Virus record (IMG/VR): IMGVR_UViG_2740892115_000003 | Reading direction: 5' to 3' (one strand) | DNA: 27,180 nt | From: a virus | Lineage: Duplodnaviria > Heunggongvirae > Uroviricota > Caudoviricetes | Shown: positions 8,827 to 27,180 of the stretch, piece after piece | How the letters are laid out: each line of letters starts with the position of its first letter | How positions within the stretch are numbered: position 1 is the first letter of the stretch | Notes under the pieces: model-generated | What the model saw: only the letters and a program-made list of their open reading frames with translations | What the model was told of the DNA's origin: nothing | The model's database searches: none | Program-made: the position numbers and the translations under genes

Positions 8827-9786
8827 ATGAAAATTTGTATCGATGACGGCTCCACCAACATCAAGCTGGCATGGACTGAGAACGGCGAACGCCGCAACGC
8901 CATCAGCCCGAACAGCTTCAAGTCGGAATGGTCTGCGCCGTTCGGTGGCACGCAGCCCGCGAACTACATGCTTGATGGCGTGCGCTATGGTTTTGATCCG
9001 GTCAGCGATCGCTTTGTCCAGACGACTGACACGCAATACCAGTACAGCGATGTGAATGTCATTGCCATTCATCACGCGTTGGTCAAATCAGGCATCACGC
9101 CACAGGAGGTGGATGTGGTTGTCACCCTGCCACTGAGCGAGTATTTCGACACAAACGCACAGCCGGACATAGCCAACATCAACCGCAAAAAAGCGAACGT
9201 TATGCGCCCGGTGGAGTACCAGAACGGCGAAGCATTCACTATCCGTAACGTACGGGTTATGCCTGAATCCATTCCGGCTGGCTTTAAGGCACTGGCTGAC
9301 ATGAGTCCGTTTGAATCCCTGCTGATTGTGGATTTAGGCGGAACCACGCTGGATGTGGCAAAGGTTCAGGGACAACTGGCAGGTATCAGCCAGGTGTTTT
9401 GCGATCCACACGTAGGCGTTTCCCTGATGGCCGATGCCGTACTGTCGGTGATGGCCACTAACGGTATGCGTACCAGTCACCACATCGCCAATACCATTAT
9501 CGAACATCGCCATGATGAAGCCTGGCTGCGCCAGCACATCCACAATGACGCGCATTACGCCAGCCTGATGGCGGTTATTCGTGAAAAGGAAGAAACACTG
9601 AAACAACGCGTGATCCGCGCGCTGGCGGGTTTTTCGGGTTACGGGCGGGTGATGGTTGTCGGTGGAGGGGCGGAGATTGTGGCACCCGCTATCCGCGAAG
9701 CCTGCGGAGTTAATGCGACTTTCATCGCGGACGGGGTGCCACAGTTTGCTCTGGTTAATGGGCTGTACGCAATGGACAAGGAGTAA
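8827..9786 (+). CDS. parM: Actin-like plasmid segregation ATPase ParM/StbA
   Basis: It aligns along its full length with plasmid R1 ParM (from memory). Shared motifs are IDDGSTNIKL, ISPNSFKSEW, VMPESIPAGF, DLGGTTLDV and GGGAE. Confidence 0.93.
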   Translation: MKICIDDGSTNIKLAWTENGERRNAISPNSFKSEWSAPFGGTQPANYMLDGVRYGFDPVSDRFVQTTDTQYQYSDVNVIAIHHALVKSGITPQEVDVVVTLPLSEYFDTNAQPDIANINRKKANVMRPVEYQNGEAFTIRNVRVMPESIPAGFKALADMSPFESLLIVDLGGTTLDVAKVQGQLAGISQVFCDPHVGVSLMADAVLSVMATNGMRTSHHIANTIIEHRHDEAWLRQHIHNDAHYASLMAVIREKEETLKQRVIRALAGFSGYGRVMVVGGGAEIVAPAIREACGVNATFIADGVPQFALVNGLYAMDKE

Positions 9787-9790
9787 ACCA

Positions 9791-10102
9791 ATGACGACAC
9801 CAACCAGACGGATAAGTTTCTATCTGAAGCCTGCGGCCGTCAAGAACGAAAGCGAAGCATGCGCCTGGCTGGACAGCCTTACACCAGAAGCCCGCAAAAG
9901 CGGCCAACGCGTGGCTTTTCTGGCCGGGCTGGCACTACTGAAAATGAATCCGGCAGAGGCTTACCGACTGGCTGCATGGGCTGATGATGAGGCATTATCA
10001 GTGACACAAACCAGGACAGAACGCCCCGCGTCACAGCCAGTATCAGCCGCACAGATAACCAGTCAGATGGCCGGAAATATCCGGGCGTTATTTCCCGAAT
10101 AA
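9791..10102 (+). CDS. parR: ParR-like centromere-binding adaptor (RHH N-terminus)
   Basis: The ATG at 9791 follows AAGGAG. RRISFYLKP...LDSLTPEARKSGQRVAFLAGLALLKMNP parallels R1 ParR (RRTIAFKLNP...LDSIPQGERSRLNRAALTAGLALYRQDP, from memory). It sits immediately after parM. Confidence 0.8.
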   Translation: MTTPTRRISFYLKPAAVKNESEACAWLDSLTPEARKSGQRVAFLAGLALLKMNPAEAYRLAAWADDEALSVTQTRTERPASQPVSAAQITSQMAGNIRALFPE

Positions 10103-10165: not shown

Positions 10166-10501
10166 ATGCAACACATTGACAGAGAAAAAGCGCAGCGACT
10201 GATTGAGCGGATGGAAGCGCTGGCGAAAGAAGAAAATGTCAACATCCAAAAAATAGCTGAATGTGGCCAGATAGTTCTTCGTCGTGAAAAAGACCTCAAA
10301 CAACTGATGTCTGGCGAAACCAGCAAAACATGGACTTCAGGCGAGAAGACGGTTTATTGCAGTTTCTGCAATAAATCCCAGTACGAAGTCACAAAGGTGA
10401 TTGCCGGACCGTCTGTTTACATCTGCAATGAGTGCGTGGATTTGTGCAATGAAATTATCAGGAAAGAAGTGACAGACCATGAAGAAAAAACGCATGAATG
10501 A
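10166..10501 (+). CDS. Small protein with a C-terminal ClpX-type C4 zinc-binding domain and no AAA+ module
   Basis: An AGGGGG ribosome-binding site lies upstream. [39 protein letters not shown] closely matches the E. coli ClpX N-domain ([39 protein letters not shown], from memory). The N-terminal ~60 aa are helical. Confidence 0.85.
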
Positions 10502-10667
10502 CGAATTTGACGGCTTTTAATTTTATCGGGGCGCACTGTCGCCCTGCATGGAGAAAAACAATAAAAAAGATGAATAACTGCTCATGTCAGACGCGCTGCG
10601 GGCAAGTCTGGCACCCTGCCCTGTTTCCGCAAAGGCTGTTGTCTTAACACGACAGAGTATGCCAGCA

Positions 10668-11075
10668 TTAAATATAATCTTCTTCGTAGTCGCTGATTAA
10701 TTCATTGCCATAATCAGACAGCAATTTCAAAGCAAAGGTAACTTCCTCAAGGGTAGCTATCCCCATTGCTGAAAACACCGTTAATTTAACCAGCAGCAGG
10801 GAGTTTGAAAGTTCGGAAGAGTTCATCATTAAAAATATTGATGCAGCCTGAAAAGCTGTGCGTTTATTCCCATCATGAAAGGCATGAGCCTTGGCTATAC
10901 CAATCAAATACATAGCAGCCAGAGCATGAATATCATCAACCCCTTCATAGTAGTGTAGTGTCCTGACGCGATTTAAAGCACCTTCAAGTAGCCCGTCATT
11001 GGCATTTCCGCTCTGGGGTAAAGTTTCAGCATGGATACGTTCTACTTGTTCTTTTGACAAAAACACTATGTCCAT
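10668..11075 (-). CDS. doc: Doc (death-on-curing) Fic-fold toxin
   Basis: It carries the Doc/Fic motif HAFHDGNKRTAF. It is 135 aa long, and its start overlaps the stop of the upstream antitoxin ORF. Confidence 0.92.
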   Translation of the reverse strand: MDIVFLSKEQVERIHAETLPQSGNANDGLLEGALNRVRTLHYYEGVDDIHALAAMYLIGIAKAHAFHDGNKRTAFQAASIFLMMNSSELSNSLLLVKLTVFSAMGIATLEEVTFALKLLSDYGNELISDYEEDYI

Positions 11076-11431
11076 CAGTTATCCTCAAGCTTTTTAATGA
11101 TATCCGCATGTTTTTCTCTTGTACGCTTCATTGCATCTTCAAAAGACAATCCTTTTTTTCTCTGTGCGACAAGAGCTGGATGACGTTTTTCCAGATCTCT
11201 CACTGCATTTATTAAGAGTGGTTGCTTCATTTTGTTTATTTGATCCCGCAGTTTTTTGGTTTTGCCAAGGACAGCCCGTATTTCAGGACTAAGATCAGAA
11301 CCAGCAAGAACAACATCCTTCCCTCCCTGCGCAGTGATAACGACACTGCCACCGGAAGAAAGGTAATCCAGAATTTCACTCAGGTTCTCACGAAATTCAT
11401 CATCAGTTACAGTTTTCATATTCATTTCCAT
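11075..11431 (-). CDS. Phd/YefM-type antitoxin (long form)
   Basis: The N-terminus TVTDDEFRENLSEILDYLSSGGSVVITAQGGKDVVL has a Phd/YefM-fold pattern. It is translationally coupled to doc. The start may be an internal ATG (11425 or 11419). Confidence 0.8.
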   Translation of the reverse strand: MEMNMKTVTDDEFRENLSEILDYLSSGGSVVITAQGGKDVVLAGSDLSPEIRAVLGKTKKLRDQINKMKQPLLINAVRDLEKRHPALVAQRKKGLSFEDAMKRTREKHADIIKKLEDN

Positions 11432-11505
11432 TATGCACGCCCATAACGTAAGTATAACGGCTTGTTGGGCAGTAATAACACCGCCATATTTTCATTTTAT
11501 ACACC

Positions 11506-11531
11506 GCACAATAGTGCACAAATTTGCACAA
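11506..11531. promoter_or_regulatory. Three 10-bp-phased GCACAA repeats (TTGTGC on the minus strand), a possible phd-doc promoter/operator
   Basis: GCACAA occurs at 11506, 11516 and 11526. On the minus strand the middle TTGTGC lies 16 nt from TAAAAT, giving a possible -35/-10 pair about 75-100 bp upstream of the antitoxin start. Confidence 0.35.
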
Positions 11532-11539
11532 TTTTTTTG

Positions 11540-11905
11540 AACAACTTTTTACCCTTCCGGCCCGCGTGGCGACTGGATCCGTCAGGGATCCGTGCGTGCA
11601 CAAAAAAACGCGTTTTTTCTGCGCGCAGGTGACGGGGGAACAGCCCGCGTTTCAGGGGGTAAATAGCATTCCCTGAACGATGTCGCAGAGATACAACAGA
11701 ATGGCTGTATTTCTCACGCTGAGCGTGAAAAATACGTGAGGGATTCTGATTTGATGGGGTGAAAGGTAAGGCCGTCAAAATCGCACTGAGGCGGCGAGAA
11801 CATGCAGTCAACGCGGTAGGATTGCGTAAGAGTCTGACCGTCGATGATGGCAATAAGCAGGAAAGCGTCGTGAAATTATCTGATTGATACAGGAGCTGGA
11901 GAGTC
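11540..11905. other. Non-coding region expected to contain cos (cohesive-end / terminase recognition site)
   Basis: In P2, cos lies just beyond the 3' end of Q, so synteny places it here. The region is rich in symmetry elements. These include GGATCC-N5-GGATCC (11574-11590), an A6-CGCG-T6 palindrome (11603-11618), the TTCAGGG/CCCTGAA hairpin (11651-11677), and CACGCTGAGCGTG. Two G-rich candidates loosely resemble the P2/186 cohesive end: GGTGACGGGGGAACAGC (near 11629) and GGCAATAAGCAGGAAAGCG (near 11850). I could not fix the exact site. Confidence 0.4.
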
Positions 11906-11929
11906 GGGGCATAAATTTTTTATGCCCCG
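11905..11929 (-). terminator. Strong hairpin just downstream of Q (possible end of the P-Q transcript)
   Basis: CGGGGCATAAA, a TTT loop, then TTTATGCCCCG gives an 11-bp stem. Neither strand has a clean U-tract after it. Confidence 0.35.
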
Positions 11930-11955: not shown

Positions 11956-13002
11956 TCAGGATGTGGGCTGGGTGTCTAACAGTGCGTAAGGGTTAAAGCG
12001 GATCACCTCTTCGCCGAGCCAGTCATTGATGTGCTTCATGGCCTCCATGACGGGCATCAGCTCGTTAATTGCGTAAACCCGCGCGGCCTTCTCCACATCA
12101 CCAAACGCACTTTTTTCGCCTGGCATCGCCCCCATCAGTTGCGGCGGAACGCGGTGCGCAGCCAGCACATCATCACGGGATGCCGCCTTAACATTCATGA
12201 ACTCATCCTTTGCAGTGATCTGCTGGAACGGCAAAATTTGCACACCTTCTTTGCCCCCGTTGGGCGCATGGATGAGCACGTTTTTAAACGCACCACCGCC
12301 ACGCGCGCCCTGTAACGTTTCTTTCAGGGAGTCCATGCTTTCGCGGTTTACCTGCGCTGCGCCGATGTAGATGATACACCCGGCGTGGGATCCGTTGTCG
12401 TAATACAGTTTTCTGAACATGTCCGCCGAATGAGACAGGCTGGCCGAGAGTAATGCGCCAAGATATTCCGGCATGCCGTAGATTTCCTGGTTAATATCCG
12501 GATTCATCAGGTGGCACACTTTGCCAGGGCGAAACTGGAACGCGTCCTTGCCATCCTGCACATACCACCATGATTCAAGATCGCTTCCGCGTCGCATGTA
12601 TTTCGCCAGGGCGTGCCGTAATTTAAGCGGTTCGCCGAGCATATTGCTTCGAAGCTCAAGGAATGCGTTACCGAACACAAACCAGTCCAGCGCCAGCGCC
12701 GAGAAATCCTGCCGGGAAAGCAGCGGGTGCGGAATATAGCAGCCGAGCAATACATTGCGCTTAAAGTAAAGCGCAGACTGATGCCAGGACGTTTGCCGGG
12801 CAGCTCTTGCCAGACCGTACCAGTCCACCGGGGTTTCATACCACCGCCCGTTATCAGCACAGTACATATTATCCAGCAGGTCATGCCCGGTCAGGCGATA
12901 AGGACCATCAAATGTGAATGCACTGAGCGACGATTCTTTCCTGAGCGCATCAGCGAGATCAATGCGTGAACTCATGCGCACTTTTTTATTTTTTCTGCTC
13001 AT
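11956..13002 (-). CDS. Q: Portal protein (P2 gpQ family)
   Basis: It is 348 aa and syntenic, with an ATGA overlap to P. It matches the remembered gpQ family in size and arrangement. Confidence 0.95.
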   Translation of the reverse strand: MSRKNKKVRMSSRIDLADALRKESSLSAFTFDGPYRLTGHDLLDNMYCADNGRWYETPVDWYGLARAARQTSWHQSALYFKRNVLLGCYIPHPLLSRQDFSALALDWFVFGNAFLELRSNMLGEPLKLRHALAKYMRRGSDLESWWYVQDGKDAFQFRPGKVCHLMNPDINQEIYGMPEYLGALLSASLSHSADMFRKLYYDNGSHAGCIIYIGAAQVNRESMDSLKETLQGARGGGAFKNVLIHAPNGGKEGVQILPFQQITAKDEFMNVKAASRDDVLAAHRVPPQLMGAMPGEKSAFGDVEKAARVYAINELMPVMEAMKHINDWLGEEVIRFNPYALLDTQPTS

Positions 13003-19583: not shown

Positions 19584-19725
19584 CCCACCCACATGGGGAA
19601 ACCTCGGAATATGGGGCGACCGCCTTCTGGATGCACTGGAAACCTGTAACGCGGATAAACGGGCCATTGCTGAACTGGATAAGAGAATAGCCGAACTGAC
19701 ACACCAGACGGGAGTAACACAATGA
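19444..19725 (+). CDS. o-spanin (Rz1/LysC-like outer-membrane lipoprotein), overlapping the i-spanin in the +1 frame
   Basis: MNAPTLCLTLVLLTGC carries a lipobox (LLTG|C). The mature part is proline-rich. It starts inside the i-spanin and extends beyond it, as with P2 lysB/lysC. Confidence 0.7.
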   Translation: MNAPTLCLTLVLLTGCAGTQNAPGPAPSVRLIPQTLTMPVTPPPFPDPPTWGNLGIWGDRLLDALETCNADKRAIAELDKRIAELTHQTGVTQ

Positions 19726-21602
19726 CCAGTAAGAACTTTGCACTGATTACAGCCATGACACAGGCTGAACTGACTCAAAAGGTGAATGAACATCTTGCGA
19801 AAGGGTGGCATCTTCAGGGGGAGACGCGGGTTGCCTACGAACCCGGCACCCCGTGGTATCTAATGCAGGCAATGGTGGCCGATGGCACTACAGACATCTC
19901 ACCTGATTCCCCCCAGCACGGCAGCGTGCCGGAGTGGTATTACGTGGTGGTACTTGCTGGTCAATCCAATGCCATGTCATATGGTGATGGAATGCCGCTG
20001 CCGGATTCTTACGATGCGCCCCACCCACGCATTAAGCAACTGGCCCGTCGCAACACAGTGACTCCCGGTGGTAAAGCATGCGCATTTAACGACATCATTC
20101 CGGCAGACCACTGCCTGCATGATGTTCAGGATATGAGCGCACTGAATCATCCGAAGGCAGACCTGAGCAAAGGGCAGTACGGCTGTGTCGGCCAGGGCTT
20201 ACATATTGCCAAAAAACTGCTTCCGTATATCCCGAATAACGCGGGGATCCTGCTGGTACCATGCTGTCGTGGTGGTTCGGCATTCACCCAGGGCGCGGAG
20301 GGGACATTCAGTGCGGACACGGGGGCCAGCCAGGATTCGGCGCGCTGGGGTGCGGGTAAGCCGTTATATCAGGACCTGATCGCACGCACCAAAGCGGCAT
20401 TACAGAAGAACCCGAAAAATGTGTTGCTGGCGGTGTGCTGGATGCAGGGCGAATTTGACATGAGCGCTGCCACCTACGCACAGCAACCGGACCTGTTCAC
20501 GGCCATGCTGAAGCAGTTCCGTACTGACCTTTCCGGATTTAACGCGCAGTGCCATGGCGGCAGTGCTGCAGTTGTACCGTGGATTTGTGGCGACACGACG
20601 TATTACTGGAAAAACACATACGGCACACAGTATGACTCCGTCTACGGCGCGTACAAAAACAGGGAGAGCGACAACGTTTTCTTTGTGCCGTTCATGACCG
20701 ACGGTAACGGCAACAACACGCCCACCAACTTACCGGCAGAAGACCCGGATATTGCTGATGCAGGTTATTACGGCGCGCAATCCCGTAGTAATGGTAATTG
20801 GGTATCGTCAAATCGTCCGACACATTTCAGTTCATGGGCGCGCAGGGGCATTATTTCGGATCGCCTGGCAACCGCTATTCTGAACGCAGTTGGTCGAACC
20901 AGCGCCTTCATCAGCGGTACCGCACCGGAGATTAAACCCTCGCCCGGCGGCGACACGCCATCGGGGCCGTCTGATGGTGACACATCCGTTCGTACAGTCT
21001 CCCTGCTGCCGACAGCCGGAGAGGCTGCTGCGCAGGGCTGGACCATCACCGGCGGCAGTGTTGCGCTGGAAGATGGTGTGTTTAAGGTTACCAAGCAGAG
21101 CAATAAAACCTGGTCCCTGATGCATCCGGTGGATGACGCAGTCTCCCTGCTGACACGGGGTGGCAGACTGAGCTGTAAGTTTCGACTGTCAGGCGCACTG
21201 ACCAACAACCAGTTCGGTCTGGGAATTTATCTGTATACCGATGTAGCGTTACCTGACGTCGTGGCGATGACCGGGACTGGTAACCCGTTCCTGATGTCGT
21301 TCTTCACCCAGACCACAGACGGCAAACTGAATCTGATGCATCACAAGAAAGCCGGAAACACAAAGTTGGGCGAGTTCGGGAATTACAGTAACGACTGGCA
21401 GACGCTGGAGCTGGTGTTCACCGCCGGCAGTGCCACGGTTACTCCGAAACTGAATGGAGTGGCTGGCCCGGCATTCCAGGTCATAAAAGACAGTCTGACA
21501 CTGGGGCTGAATGCGCTGACGTTAACTGATATCACTAAAAATGCCGCGTACGGCGTCGATATCGGTAGCCTGGTGCTGGAAATCAATAATCCCGCAGCAT
21601 AA
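19722..21602 (+). CDS. DUF1737 / sialate O-acetylesterase (SASA, SGNH-like) / C-terminal lectin-like protein (NanS-p-like)
   Basis: The N-terminus (ALITAMTQAELTQKVNEHLAKGWHLQGE) is DUF1737-like. The esterase has a GQSN nucleophile motif (VVLAGQSNAMSYGDG), then WMQGEFD and PTHFS. The C-terminal ~200 aa are beta-rich and LamG/ConA-like. Its ATGA start overlaps the o-spanin stop. Confidence 0.85.
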   Translation: MTSKNFALITAMTQAELTQKVNEHLAKGWHLQGETRVAYEPGTPWYLMQAMVADGTTDISPDSPQHGSVPEWYYVVVLAGQSNAMSYGDGMPLPDSYDAPHPRIKQLARRNTVTPGGKACAFNDIIPADHCLHDVQDMSALNHPKADLSKGQYGCVGQGLHIAKKLLPYIPNNAGILLVPCCRGGSAFTQGAEGTFSADTGASQDSARWGAGKPLYQDLIARTKAALQKNPKNVLLAVCWMQGEFDMSAATYAQQPDLFTAMLKQFRTDLSGFNAQCHGGSAAVVPWICGDTTYYWKNTYGTQYDSVYGAYKNRESDNVFFVPFMTDGNGNNTPTNLPAEDPDIADAGYYGAQSRSNGNWVSSNRPTHFSSWARRGIISDRLATAILNAVGRTSAFISGTAPEIKPSPGGDTPSGPSDGDTSVRTVSLLPTAGEAAAQGWTITGGSVALEDGVFKVTKQSNKTWSLMHPVDDAVSLLTRGGRLSCKFRLSGALTNNQFGLGIYLYTDVALPDVVAMTGTGNPFLMSFFTQTTDGKLNLMHHKKAGNTKLGEFGNYSNDWQTLELVFTAGSATVTPKLNGVAGPAFQVIKDSLTLGLNALTLTDITKNAAYGVDIGSLVLEINNPAA

Positions 21603-24546: not shown

Positions 24547-25147
24547 TTCGTTGTTACCACCATCAGCCAGCAATTTCATGCGTTGTGCCGAAGCCGTCGG
24601 AACACGCATTACAGACATTCCGGTAGACCTCAACACGCTGTGGTCGCCGGACACCTGCCCGGTGCATCTGCTGCCTTATCTCGCCTGGGCGTTTTCCGTT
24701 GACCGCTGGGATCGCAACTGGCCGGAAGAGACAAAGCGACAGGTGATTCGTGATGCATGGCTGATACACCGACACAAAGGGACCATCAGCGCACTGCGAA
24801 GAGCCGTGGAGCCTCTCGGCTACCTGATTGAAGTAAAGGAGTGGTGGCAACTCAACGAGGAGCCGGGAACATTTCGCATTGTTGTCGGAGTACTTGATCA
24901 GGGCATCACCGATGAAATGTATCAGGAACTTGAGCGCCTTATTGCGGATGCAAAACCAGTAAGTCGCCATCTGACGGGGCTGGCGATCAGCCTGAGTGTG
25001 AACGGAAAGATTTTCGTTGGTACGGGATGCTATCACGGCGATGCCCTGACGGTTTATCCCTACACCCCGGAGTCCATTATTGTCGAAGGGGATTATTTCC
25101 CTGCCCCGGCCATTCATTTAATTGATAATCTGAGAGTAAACGCATGA
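24539..25147 (+). CDS. I: Baseplate / tail-fibre-attachment protein I
   Basis: The ATG at 24539 overlaps the end of J. LWSPDTCPVHLLPYLAWAFSVDRWD..WPE..KR.VIRDA...HKGTI.A.RR.VEPLGYL aligns closely with P2 gpI (from memory). Confidence 0.9.
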   Translation: MSNSLLPPSASNFMRCAEAVGTRITDIPVDLNTLWSPDTCPVHLLPYLAWAFSVDRWDRNWPEETKRQVIRDAWLIHRHKGTISALRRAVEPLGYLIEVKEWWQLNEEPGTFRIVVGVLDQGITDEMYQELERLIADAKPVSRHLTGLAISLSVNGKIFVGTGCYHGDALTVYPYTPESIIVEGDYFPAPAIHLIDNLRVNA

Positions 25148-26874
25148 CAGTGAAATACTACGCCATTCTGACTAATCAGGGCGCGGCACGACTGGCTAAC
25201 GCGACGATGCTCGGCAGTAAGCTGAATCTGACGCGAATGGCCGTTGGTGATGCAAATGGTGTGTTACCAACACCAGACCCTGCACAAACAAAACTGATTA
25301 ACCAGAAACGCATTGCACCGCTGAATCTTCTGAGTGTTGACCCTAACAATCAGAGCCAGATTATTGCGGAGCAAATCATCCCTGAAAGCGAGGGAGGATT
25401 CTGGATCCGTGAGATTGGTCTTTATGATGATAAAGGTGTACTCATTGCGGTGGCAAACTGCCCGGAAACGTACAAACCGCAGTTGCAGGAAGGCAGTGGA
25501 CGCACCCAGACTATCCGCATGATTCTGGTTGTCACGAACACCGAAGCCATCACGCTGAAAATCGACCCGTCTGTGGTTCTGGCAACCCGCAAATATGTGG
25601 ATGATAAAATATCAGAGCACGAGCAGTCACGACGTCACCCGGACGCCTCGCTGACCGCAAAAGGCTTTGTTCAACTTAGCAGCGCCACCAACAGCACCTC
25701 TGAAACGCTGGCCGCAACACCGAAAGCGGTTAAGGCTGCATATGACCTGGCTAACGGGAAATATACCGCTCAGGATGCGACTACGGCACGAAAAGGCCTT
25801 GTTCAACTCAGTAGCGCCACAAACAGCACGTCTGAAACGCTGGCCGCAACACCGAAAGCGGTTAAGGCTGCATATGACCTGGCTAACGGGAAATATACCG
25901 CTCAGGATGCGACTGCGGCACGAAAAGGCCTTGTTCAACTCAGTAGCGCCACAAACAGCACGTCTGAAACGCTGGCAGCGACACCAAAAGCTGTTAAGGC
26001 GGTAATGGATGAAACGAACAAGAAAGCGCCCTTAAATAGTCCTGCACTGACCGGAACGCCAACAACACCAACTGCGCGACAGGGAACGAATAATACCCAA
26101 ATCGCAAGCACGGCTTTCGTTATGGCTGCGATTGCCGCCCTTGTAGATTCGTCACCTGATGCACTGAACACGCTGAACGAGCTGGCTGCGGCGCTGGGCA
26201 ACGACCCGAATTTTGCGACCACCATAACTAACGCGCTTGCGGGTAAGCAACCGAAGGATGCCACCCTGACGGCGCTGGCGGAGCTTGCTACATCAGCAGA
26301 TAAACTCCCATATTTTAAAGGGGCAGATCGTGCCGCGTTAACTGCACTGACAAGTGTTGGACGCGCCATTCTTGGTAAGACCAGTATTCAGAGCGTTCTT
26401 GATTACCTTGGTTTGGGGGAAGGCTCTGCATTGCCTGTTGGTGTACCGGTTCCATGGCCCACCGCCACACCGCCAGCAGGCTGGTTACAGTGCAACGGAG
26501 CTACGTTCACCAAAGAACAATATCCTGTTCTGGCCAGAGTCTACCCGACCCTCCGTCTTCCCGATTTACGCGGTGAGTTTATCCGTGGATGGGACGGTGG
26601 TCGCAAGGTTGATACCGGGCGTGCGCTACTTTCATTTCAGGAAGGGACTATCGTATCCGGTTTTGATGATAATGATACCGGAGATATCAGTTCGCTCGGC
26701 TCTACACAATACGGATTTGGTGACGCTTTAACCTCTAATCAACTGGGGGTCATAAATGGCAAAAAGTGGATATTTGATGCATCCTCTAAAGGTGCACGAA
26801 GACATGACTGGTGGGCTTATGTATCAGCTCGCCCCCGCAATATCGCATTTAACTATATCGTGAGGGCGGCGTGA
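25144..26874 (+). CDS. H: Tail fibre protein H (P2-type N-terminal and shaft region, tail-collar-type C-terminal receptor domain)
   Basis: The N-terminal two-thirds are nearly colinear with remembered P2 gpH (GFW.RE.GLYDD.G.LIAVAN, EHEQSRRHPDASLTAKGF, NTQIA.TAFVMAAIAALVDSSPDALNTLNELAAALGNDPNF). After YLGL the sequence switches to a collar-type domain (PVPWPTATPPAGWLQCNGATF...LPDLRGEFIRGWD). Confidence 0.92.
   Translation: MTVKYYAILTNQGAARLANATMLGSKLNLTRMAVGDANGVLPTPDPAQTKLINQKRIAPLNLLSVDPNNQSQIIAEQIIPESEGGFWIREIGLYDDKGVLIAVANCPETYKPQLQEGSGRTQTIRMILVVTNTEAITLKIDPSVVLATRKYVDDKISEHEQSRRHPDASLTAKGFVQLSSATNSTSETLAATPKAVKAAYDLANGKYTAQDATTARKGLVQLSSATNSTSETLAATPKAVKAAYDLANGKYTAQDATAARKGLVQLSSATNSTSETLAATPKAVKAVMDETNKKAPLNSPALTGTPTTPTARQGTNNTQIASTAFVMAAIAALVDSSPDALNTLNELAAALGNDPNFATTITNALAGKQPKDATLTALAELATSADKLPYFKGADRAALTALTSVGRAILGKTSIQSVLDYLGLGEGSALPVGVPVPWPTATPPAGWLQCNGATFTKEQYPVLARVYPTLRLPDLRGEFIRGWDGGRKVDTGRALLSFQEGTIVSGFDDNDTGDISSLGSTQYGFGDALTSNQLGVINGKKWIFDASSKGARRHDWWAYVSARPRNIAFNYIVRAA
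25660..25998 (+). repeat. In-frame 132-bp tandem repeat (about 2.6 copies) inside H
   Basis: Units start at 25660, 25792 and 25924. Each encodes KG(F/L)VQLSSATNSTSETLAATPKAVKAAYDLANGKYTAQDAT.AR. Units 1 and 2 differ at only a few positions. Confidence 0.95.
26396..26421. promoter_or_regulatory. Candidate Din-family (Hin/Gin/Cin/Pin) DNA-invertase crossover site at the H constant/variable junction
   Basis: TTCTTGATTACC-TT-GGTTTGGGGGAA matches hixL (TTCTTGAAAACCAAGGTTTTTGATAA, from memory) at 18 of 26 positions. The ACC-NN-GGTTT core is conserved. It encodes the YLGLGE point where similarity to P2 gpH ends. Confidence 0.45.
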
Positions 26875-26880
26875 TACCGT

Positions 26881-27180
26881 TCAGCCGGCAAGCGCCAGTG
26901 GCGCTTCCGGCCAGCTGATTTCAGGTGCCTTGCTGATATCCAGTGCGTTCAGCTCGTCGATATAATCCAGCACGGCGTTCAGTTTTGCCGTTTCTTCTGG
27001 TTTCAGACTGCGACCTGCCCGCAGTTTGAGGTTGATGAGGTCGATGGACTTCATCGCCTGATCCACCCGTTTCTGGCGTTGCTGTCTGGCAACCTCCAGT
27101 TCTGCGGCTCGCTGCCGTTCAGTATCGGTTACCCACGCCTCACCGTTCCAGGTATCCCATGGCGTGGCTGGCTGTTTTGT
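26881..27180 (-). CDS. Tail fibre assembly (chaperone) protein, Tfa/gpG/U family; N-terminus lies beyond the window
   Basis: The minus-strand frame stays open to the window edge. Hand translation gives ...TKQPATPWDTWNGEAWVTDTERQRAAELEVARQQRQKRVDQAMKSIDL...ISWPEAP. WNGEAWV.D and the terminal WP..P are typical of Tfa proteins. Its stop lies 6 nt from the H stop, tail-to-tail. Confidence 0.85.
   Translation of the reverse strand, partial: TKQPATPWDTWNGEAWVTDTERQRAAELEVARQQRQKRVDQAMKSIDLINLKLRAGRSLKPEETAKLNAVLDYIDELNALDISKAPEISWPEAPLALAG

Follow-up and report, generated by a model that had tools for sequence, protein, structure and literature searches.

A probable two-state Din-family invertible segment carrying the tail-fibre tip of a P88-like Escherichia coli prophage

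Organization of the tail-fibre locus

The window analysed here is a stretch of 27,180 nucleotides from a virus of the Caudoviricetes (IMG/VR record IMGVR_UViG_2740892115_000003), and this article concerns the locus at its right-hand end, where a 26-bp sequence resembling the crossover sites of Din-family invertases lies inside the tail-fibre gene H and a tail-fibre chaperone gene (tfa') faces H from the opposite strand. An original prediction, made from the window alone, had taken this arrangement for an invertible or decayed host-range switch. The window starts at the end of an integrase gene, and its end falls inside the segment considered here; positions 25100-27180 are 100% identical to the E. 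coli sequence NZ_OZ039818.1 (L001) and 99.5% identical to strain MS 198-1. Features beyond the window are therefore described from L001, whose coordinates are converted to window coordinates (window-equivalent) by the addition of 16099. The principal features are listed in Table 1.

As now assembled, gene H joins a constant part (Hc), which is common to both orientations, to a tip cassette designated A. In Pfam comparisons the protein has an N-terminal Phage_tail_fib domain, then three Phage_fiber_2 repeats, and a Collar domain (PF07484) at residues 433-480. By BLASTP, H is 67% identical to P2 gpH and 74% identical to P88 H, and both alignments end at YLGL(G/Q)E, residue 426, in agreement with the claim that similarity to gpH stops at YLGL. 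The left crossover site is in frame at exactly this domain boundary, YLGLGE, and encodes ..DYLGLGE. The region beyond it had been described as a Mu S / P1 S-like collar; the collar part of that description stands, whereas Mu S itself gives no match to the Pfam Collar domain. Within H, at window positions 25659-26000, there is also a 132-bp tandem repeat of 2.6 copies (95% matches), as a result of which H has three Phage_fiber_2 repeats where P2 gpH has two, an insertion of 44 amino acids relative to P2.

The H stop codon (TGA, 26872-26874) is followed 6 nt later by the stop codon of tfa' (26881-26883) on the opposite strand, as had been noted from the window, and this open reading frame (ORF) is a member of PF02413. 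In L001, where tfa' can be read at its full length of 204 amino acids, the product is 59% identical to TfaE of the E. coli K-12 element e14; no relatives of Tfa' were found in the PDB at E ≤1. Preceding tfa' on the same strand is a second, silent tip cassette, B, the stop codon of which overlaps the tfa' start (TAATG), and the two are translationally coupled. Further on are the right crossover site and, ~55 bp past it and just outside the segment, a serine invertase gene. The inverted partner site, the alternative fibre end and the pin/gin-like invertase that were expected to lie downstream of the window are thus all present in L001.

Table 1. Coordinates of the features of the tail-fibre locus; the window is 27,180 nucleotides long and positions beyond it are taken from L001
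Feature	Window position	L001 position	Strand	Basis or remark
Gene H as now assembled, Hc + tip cassette A, 576 amino acids	25144..26874		+	ORF, Pfam
Hc, constant part of H, common to both orientations	25144..26406		+	98.8% identity, colinear in flipped isomer L017
Left 26-bp crossover site, TTCTTGATTACCTTGGTTTGGGGGAA	26396..26421			Match to gix/cix/pix-derived pattern
Left arm of 229-nt inverted repeat (90% complementary), encoding the Collar domain common to both tips	26405..26633	10306-10534	+	Pairs with L001 11688-11916
Tip cassette A, 155 amino acids, fused to Hc in the window state, without a downstream tfa on its own strand	26407..26874		+	
tfa', last 99 codons and stop	26881..27180, continuing to window-equivalent 27495		-	PF02413
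Silent tip cassette B, 172 amino acids, no start codon	27495-28013 (window-equivalent)	11396-11914	-	
Right crossover site, TTCCCCCAAACC-AA-CGTTTTCGTTTT	27999-28024 (window-equivalent)	11900-11925	opposite	Partner of left site
Serine invertase, 199 amino acids	28079-28678 (window-equivalent)	11980-12579	+	PF00239 Resolvase, PF02796 HTH_7

Crossover sites, invertase and the flipped isomer

The left site reads as the original prediction gave it and consists of two half-sites around a dinucleotide core, TTCTTGATTACC-TT-GGTTTGGGGGAA, with the core at 26408-26409. When compared with the gix, cixL and pix sites, the sequences of which were taken from the Mu, P1 and K-12 records, it is identical to e14 pixL at 21 of 26 positions, to gix at 17 of 26 and to cixL at 15 of 26. 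A degenerate pattern built from gix, cix and pix only, with three or fewer mismatches allowed, matches the 27-kb window once, at this site, and matched none of 100 shuffled sequences (0/100), which bears out its earlier description as a gix-like Din site. In 20 kb of L001 the same pattern has exactly two matches, the left and right sites, on opposite strands. The two sites are inverted with respect to each other and ~1603 bp apart, have identical inner half-sites and likewise a TT core, and both retain the ACC/GGT core arms. They also mark where the arms of the 229-nt inverted repeat start, the pairing being between L001 10306-10534 and 11688-11916, and the arms are identical over the first 80 nt from the core. 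Both cassettes run through LGLGE in frame.

The adjoining invertase has 72% identity with Mu Gin, 74% with Cin and 82% with e14 PinE, a range that becomes 72-84% when two related prophage invertases are included, and it departs from these five proteins at none of the columns in which all of them agree. A comparison with structures aligns it with 4M6F and 3UJ3, both of Gin, at E ~1e-91 and places the catalytic Ser9 in register. Nucleotides 19-90 of the gene agree with the enhancer annotated in P1 cin at 56 of 72 positions and with pinE at 62 of 72; this stretch, which also encodes conserved protein, begins ~85 bp from the centre of the right site.

The product expected from inversion, Hc joined to cassette B (593 amino acids), was built in silico and searched against a protein collection, where it has a real counterpart in the E. 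coli protein P0001 (99% identity, 100% coverage). P0001 agrees with the window H at 417 of the first 420 residues, and the contig that encodes it (L017; GCA_017978205.1) carries a near-identical prophage in which the order is H-B, tfa(+), A(-), invertase(+), gpU(-). In a blastn comparison of L017 with L001 the flanks are colinear, at 98.8% and 97.0% identity, whereas a segment of 1608 bp is reversed, without gaps and at 99.6% identity, and the ends of the reversed block fall within a few bases of both cores. Both orientations can therefore be found in public genomes of the same prophage lineage. In two further backgrounds, a prophage of another family in strain ABU 83972 and phage 503046, the module of two cassettes and one tfa is flipped as well; L011 and L007 are flipped copies of it. 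Among 5426 complete E. coli genomes, searched at ≥80% coverage of the junction query, Hc-A was present in 168 and Hc-B in 283, counts that include some two-piece matches from longer arrays rather than direct fusions.

These findings lead us to read the locus, with a probability of roughly 0.85, as an invertible segment of the Din family (Gin/Cin/Pin type) with two states, by which the tail fibre exchanges its receptor-binding tip. Of the earlier alternatives, invertible or decayed, the former is upheld and the latter is not, as the invertase gene, both sites, both cassettes and tfa show no damage and purifying selection acts on cassette A.

Several observations count against this reading. The internal dyad symmetry of the left site is weak, at 6/12 compared with 7-9/12 for gix, cix and pix; the enhancer is putative only, and the similarity of the cin-like stretch is not independent of coding constraint. 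The two orientations are known from comparison between genomes, and ongoing flipping in this strain is predicted. As regards the function of tip A, the tip of T4 gp37, to which it is related in sequence, needs a gp38 or Tfa-type chaperone as well as gp57A, and by analogy tip A may not fold unaided. Among isolated, plaque-forming phages none with tip A was found; the single phage-collection record with a close copy is named after a P88 reference and an ST131 host, which suggests that it is a prophage prediction. Finally, the L001/L017 crossover can be placed no more precisely than within the 80-nt identical block, and because the arms are identical for that distance beside the core, recombination by RecA and cleavage at TT are not separable from this pair of genomes.

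This last point would suit a fossil switch, in which inversion is no longer catalysed in the strain and the orientations in the databases stem from rare RecA recombination between the 229-nt inverted repeats. Such an explanation could also draw on the five of five chromosomes with exact Hc plus cassette A that share one orientation, and on the existence of decayed arrays: L005 (NZ_CP178694.1) is truly decayed, with H split and several cassettes frameshifted, and in L019 (GCA_003794355.1) the invertase is split into pieces of 116 and 86 amino acids. We regard it as improbable for the present locus, where the invertase is full length with Ser9 and all invariant columns kept, and where the core arms and TT core are retained at both sites. 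Further evidence against a fossil comes from the P2-like prophage of enteropathogenic E. coli (EPEC) E2348/69, probably the sibling locus L015, for which high-frequency flipping is described (PMC4272514), and from PinE, PinQ and PinR, which act in trans on the e14 sites (PMC12529663). As those sites are nearly identical to the ones described here, resident Pin-type invertases could also flip this segment. It might be objected, too, that the 26-bp match is a chance resemblance within a conserved coding motif, YLGLGE, and has no role in recombination, since EYLGLQE occupies the corresponding position in gpH of P2, a phage with no invertase, and the motif can thus persist without a working switch. 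The uniqueness of the pattern match in 27 kb, its absence from all of the shuffled sequences, the position of the partner site exactly at the other end of the inverted block, and the adjoining invertase gene reduce this explanation to a negligible one.

If the segment follows the Gin/Hin paradigm, invertase dimers on both sites and a Fis-bound enhancer, situated within the initial ~100 bp of the invertase gene, would assemble into an invertasome, and staggered cuts at the 2-bp TT core would be followed by 180-degree subunit rotation and religation. Late transcription of the V-W-J-I-H operon would then yield either H-A alone (the window state) or H-B with Tfa, and a population of lysogens would thus release phage of two adsorption specificities. 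In either state, readthrough would enter the invertase gene, as in Mu. Directly downstream of this gene, before the convergent gpU gene, is a hairpin that has a terminator-like score on the minus strand only; its sequence being symmetric, it may function on both strands. In the interval from the right site to the invertase ATG there is an exact P2-type TGT-N12-ACA dyad (TGTATTTTTCACGAAACA; L001 11947-11964, window-equivalent 28046-28063). Three such dyads were found in 20 kb against 5.1 expected, which is not above chance, and the implied -10 region is poor. The 55-bp spacer that bears the dyad is nearly identical in every collar-array prophage for which the start of the invertase gene was located; P88, Mu and e14 have a different one.

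Tip cassettes and the supply of chaperone

Tips A and B are 56% identical overall, with both ends in common and a divergent middle, and each matches the Pfam Collar domain (E-values 1e-14 for cassette A and 4e-16 for cassette B). Their nearest relatives are HK97 Stf, the T4 gp37 tip and e14 StfE, in which a Collar domain is likewise present; in sequence, cassette A matches the structure of the gp37 tip (2XGF) at the collar and at a C-terminal NIAFNYIVR motif. A catalogue of cassettes was assembled by scanning 10 loci for the inner half-site and clustering the C-termini of 120 H homologues. All of the catalogued cassettes begin with [LV]GLGEGSALPVGVPVPWP (Collar domain) and nearly all full-length ones end in RPRN[IV]AFNYIVRAA, while the 60-90 residues in the middle are variable, giving at least 13 tip types fused to the H family of this prophage. 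Because the conserved ends correspond to the collar and C-terminus of 2XGF, the cassette is, on this alignment, a collar into which a small variable tip has been inserted. The phiTE short tail fibre (9CUY) matches in sequence across the whole cassette, the equivalent part of that protein being one that was not resolved experimentally (PMC11972413).

Compared with diverged copies (synonymous divergence, dS, ~0.4), the variable part of cassette A has a ratio of nonsynonymous to synonymous substitution (dN/dS) of 0.12-0.17 and is under purifying selection. Close copies present a different picture on a very small scale: over window positions 26647-26871, comparison with L003, L009 and L011 gives 1-4 nonsynonymous and 0 synonymous differences (e.g., ARRHDWW vs AQRYDWW), and these very small numbers hint that a few residues of tip A are under diversifying selection.

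In the two-cassette module, cassette A and tfa are always tail to tail with no site between them, and A and tfa can therefore never be co-transcribed. The annotation of the prophage lists no other tfa, and in particular none on the plus strand, a finding that would have counted against the original prediction. The same asymmetry pervades the related arrays. Cassettes followed by tfa comprise type B, one other array type, e14 StfE and the collar tips of L019 and L021, whereas tfa is absent after types A, C, D, E, G and H, in which packing is tight from the stop codon to the next site; among these, A, E, G and H occur fused to Hc in assembled genomes. Arrays of 2, 3, 5 and 6 cassettes have exactly one tfa each, and the one-tfa layout is present in at least 11 independent loci, while other P88-like prophages retain the canonical layout with two. 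As judged from this distribution, the single-tfa layout is a recurrent architecture and not a private deletion. Its recurrence in so many independent loci makes lineage-specific loss of tfa unlikely, and with it the deletion that had been offered as one way of accounting for the missing gene.

The recurrence of the layout leaves the question of how tip A is folded. A reading that we consider unlikely, although it deserves serious weight, is that the switch flips but that only the B orientation makes working fibres: tip A would need the Tfa with which it is never co-transcribed, and the window state would be OFF or crippled unless another prophage provided Tfa in trans. The fixed tail-to-tail arrangement without an intervening site and the lack of another annotated tfa are in keeping with this, as is the failure to find a sigma-70-like promoter on the minus strand upstream of B'/tfa'. 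So are the collar and NIAFNYIVR motif that cassette A has in common with the chaperone-requiring T4 gp37, and the collar tips of e14, L019 and L021, each of which has its own tfa. Such dependence is difficult to reconcile with the purifying selection on cassette A, which persists despite the absence of co-expression with a cis tfa, with the retention of one tfa in arrays of up to six cassettes, and with the tight packing of at least six tfa-less cassette types. T4 gp12, which is also a collar fibre, is moreover not known to need a gp38-type chaperone. Nor is there a bias in orientation among 12 one-tfa loci, tfa being co-oriented with H in 6/12 and opposed in 6/12, a weak test since the late genes of a prophage are silent.

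We infer, less securely than the switch itself, that tip A is functional without a co-oriented tfa, either folding chaperone-free or receiving a chaperone in trans. A chaperone-independent collar tip, the last of the options set out in the original prediction, is the best remaining explanation for the missing tfa, and is predicted rather than proven. The wider proposal, that tfa-less collar cassettes are self-folding plug-in receptor-binding modules of ~155 amino acids and constitute a distinct chaperone-free class of fibre tip, we hold to have about an even chance of being correct. By eye, neither the C-terminal motif nor HxH motifs correlated with the presence of tfa. In such arrays the supply of chaperone would itself be phase-variable, because the sole tfa is locked to one cassette and some isomers, the window state among them, would express a tip without Tfa; that these isomers rely on Tfa from other prophages, or else give fibre-less particles, seems doubtful to us.

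The answer bears on how switches of this kind are understood. If the tfa-less tips self-fold, they would be handy modules for retargeting phages and tailocins, as the cassette family consists of compact collar-type tips, extending from the crossover site to RPRNIAFNYIVRAA, of which two to six are arrayed with one chaperone gene. If they do not, half of the isomers would be non-infective, which would alter the bet-hedging reading of such switches, and true dependence on Tfa would make the segment an ON/OFF or inter-prophage dependency switch as well.

The prophage backbone and comparison with known systems

According to the annotation of L001, the whole element is a P2-type prophage that is apparently complete. 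Its sequence assigns it to the P88-like E. coli prophages (Xuanwuvirus, a P2 relative, Peduoviridae), with late genes of P2 type; the gene order in L001 matches that of the P88 record NC_026014, and across the invertase and gpU its DNA shares 88.5-89.6% identity with that of P88-like phages. The FI-FII-E-E'-T-U tail module (L001 12606-19458, window-equivalent 28705-35557) is inverted relative to P2, with D divergent from FI. A 6-kb invertase-mediated inversion, or decay past the invertase, was considered as its origin and rejected, the same gene order being present in P88 and in every relative fetched. An apparent truncation of D, annotated in RefSeq as a product of 266 amino acids and a 31-amino-acid 'hypothetical' pseudogene, is likewise an annotation artefact; the ORF with its ATG at L001 18349 is intact at 369 amino acids.

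Other genes in the window are also of note. Between the lysis genes and gene R, at window positions 19722-21602, is a gene for a protein of 626 amino acids that P2 and P88 lack at this place; copies in relatives have DUF6645 with SASA (sialate O-acetylesterase-like) and DUF1737 matches, and the product may be a surface-glycan-modifying or virion-associated esterase. The early region (8827-10100, plus strand) contains ParM and a partition/stability gene, and a Phd/Doc toxin-antitoxin pair adjoins the portal gene (10668-11419, minus strand), both placed by reference to the annotation of the record. With these two sets of genes, an integrated prophage of P2-like type has maintenance functions of the kind known from plasmids.

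A window whose end falls within an invertible segment can mimic a broken operon, and annotation of a single isomer has a comparable effect. The RefSeq annotations of L001, L003, L009 and L010 label the silent cassettes as pseudogenes ('phage tail protein, incomplete; missing N-terminus'), while other records have them as free-standing coding sequences. Both kinds of label arise as artefacts when only one isomer of an invertible gene is annotated.

Among characterized switches, the segment is closest to the P segment of e14 and its invertase PinE, in which pixL has likewise a TT core, with the inner half-site GGTTTGGGAGAA, and the StfE tip is of the collar type with the same ends as the cassettes described here (VGLGEGSALPVGVPVPWP ... 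RPRNIAFNYIVRAA). The e14 segment differs in that each tip has its own tfa (stfP-tfaP / tfaE-stfE) and the second tip is not of the collar type; e14 is moreover a defective lambdoid element, whereas the present segment is in an intact P2-like prophage. The Mu G/Gin and P1 C/Cin systems resemble it in having a constant 5' part of the fibre gene, an in-frame 26-bp site and an invertase just outside the segment on the strand of the fibre gene. Their segments, however, are 3-4.2 kb in length with two chaperone genes in the order Sv-U-U'-Sv', as against 1.6 kb and one chaperone gene, and the gix core is TC rather than TT. P88 shares the backbone, including an invertase followed by FI-FII-E-T-U on the opposite strand and a divergent D, as well as H up to YLGL, but its canonical segment (H-tfa / tfa'-Hv') is larger, has tips of the gp37_C type and includes two tfa genes.

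Other parallels are systems with more than two sites. In a P2-like prophage of EPEC E2348/69, a 'shufflon' with three inverted repeats, three alternative C-termini and segments of about 2.2 and 1.8 kb was described, and four isomers were found by sequencing and PCR to coexist in clonal cultures (Goldberg et al. 2014, PMC4272514); the accessible part of that account makes no mention of a chaperone asymmetry. Locus L015 is probably this prophage, to judge from its layout, although the segment sizes match only roughly. It agrees with the present locus in prophage type, gene order, Hc DNA (~91% identical) and invertase-proximal spacer, and has three collar cassettes and one tfa only, which meets a tfa-less cassette tail to tail, where the locus described here has two sites and two isomers. 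Three cassettes are also found in L009, L010 and L022, five in L004 and six in L020. The largest of these arrays, in which as many as six collar cassettes are accompanied by a single invertase, recall the Min system of p15B, which reportedly has six alternative 3' ends. The present locus has two sites only and is not itself a multiple-inversion system, and the multi-site rearrangement that had been suggested for it applies instead to its relatives.

The locus thus has the defining features of the Din family; a layout in which each tip has its own tfa, typical of the family without defining it, is absent. Tail-fibre switches operated by Din invertases are already known from Mu G, P1 C, e14 P and p15B Min, and the switch itself is textbook biology, of which this segment offers a clean and fully resolved example. 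Less described are arrays of chaperone-less collar cassettes that are accompanied by one tfa.

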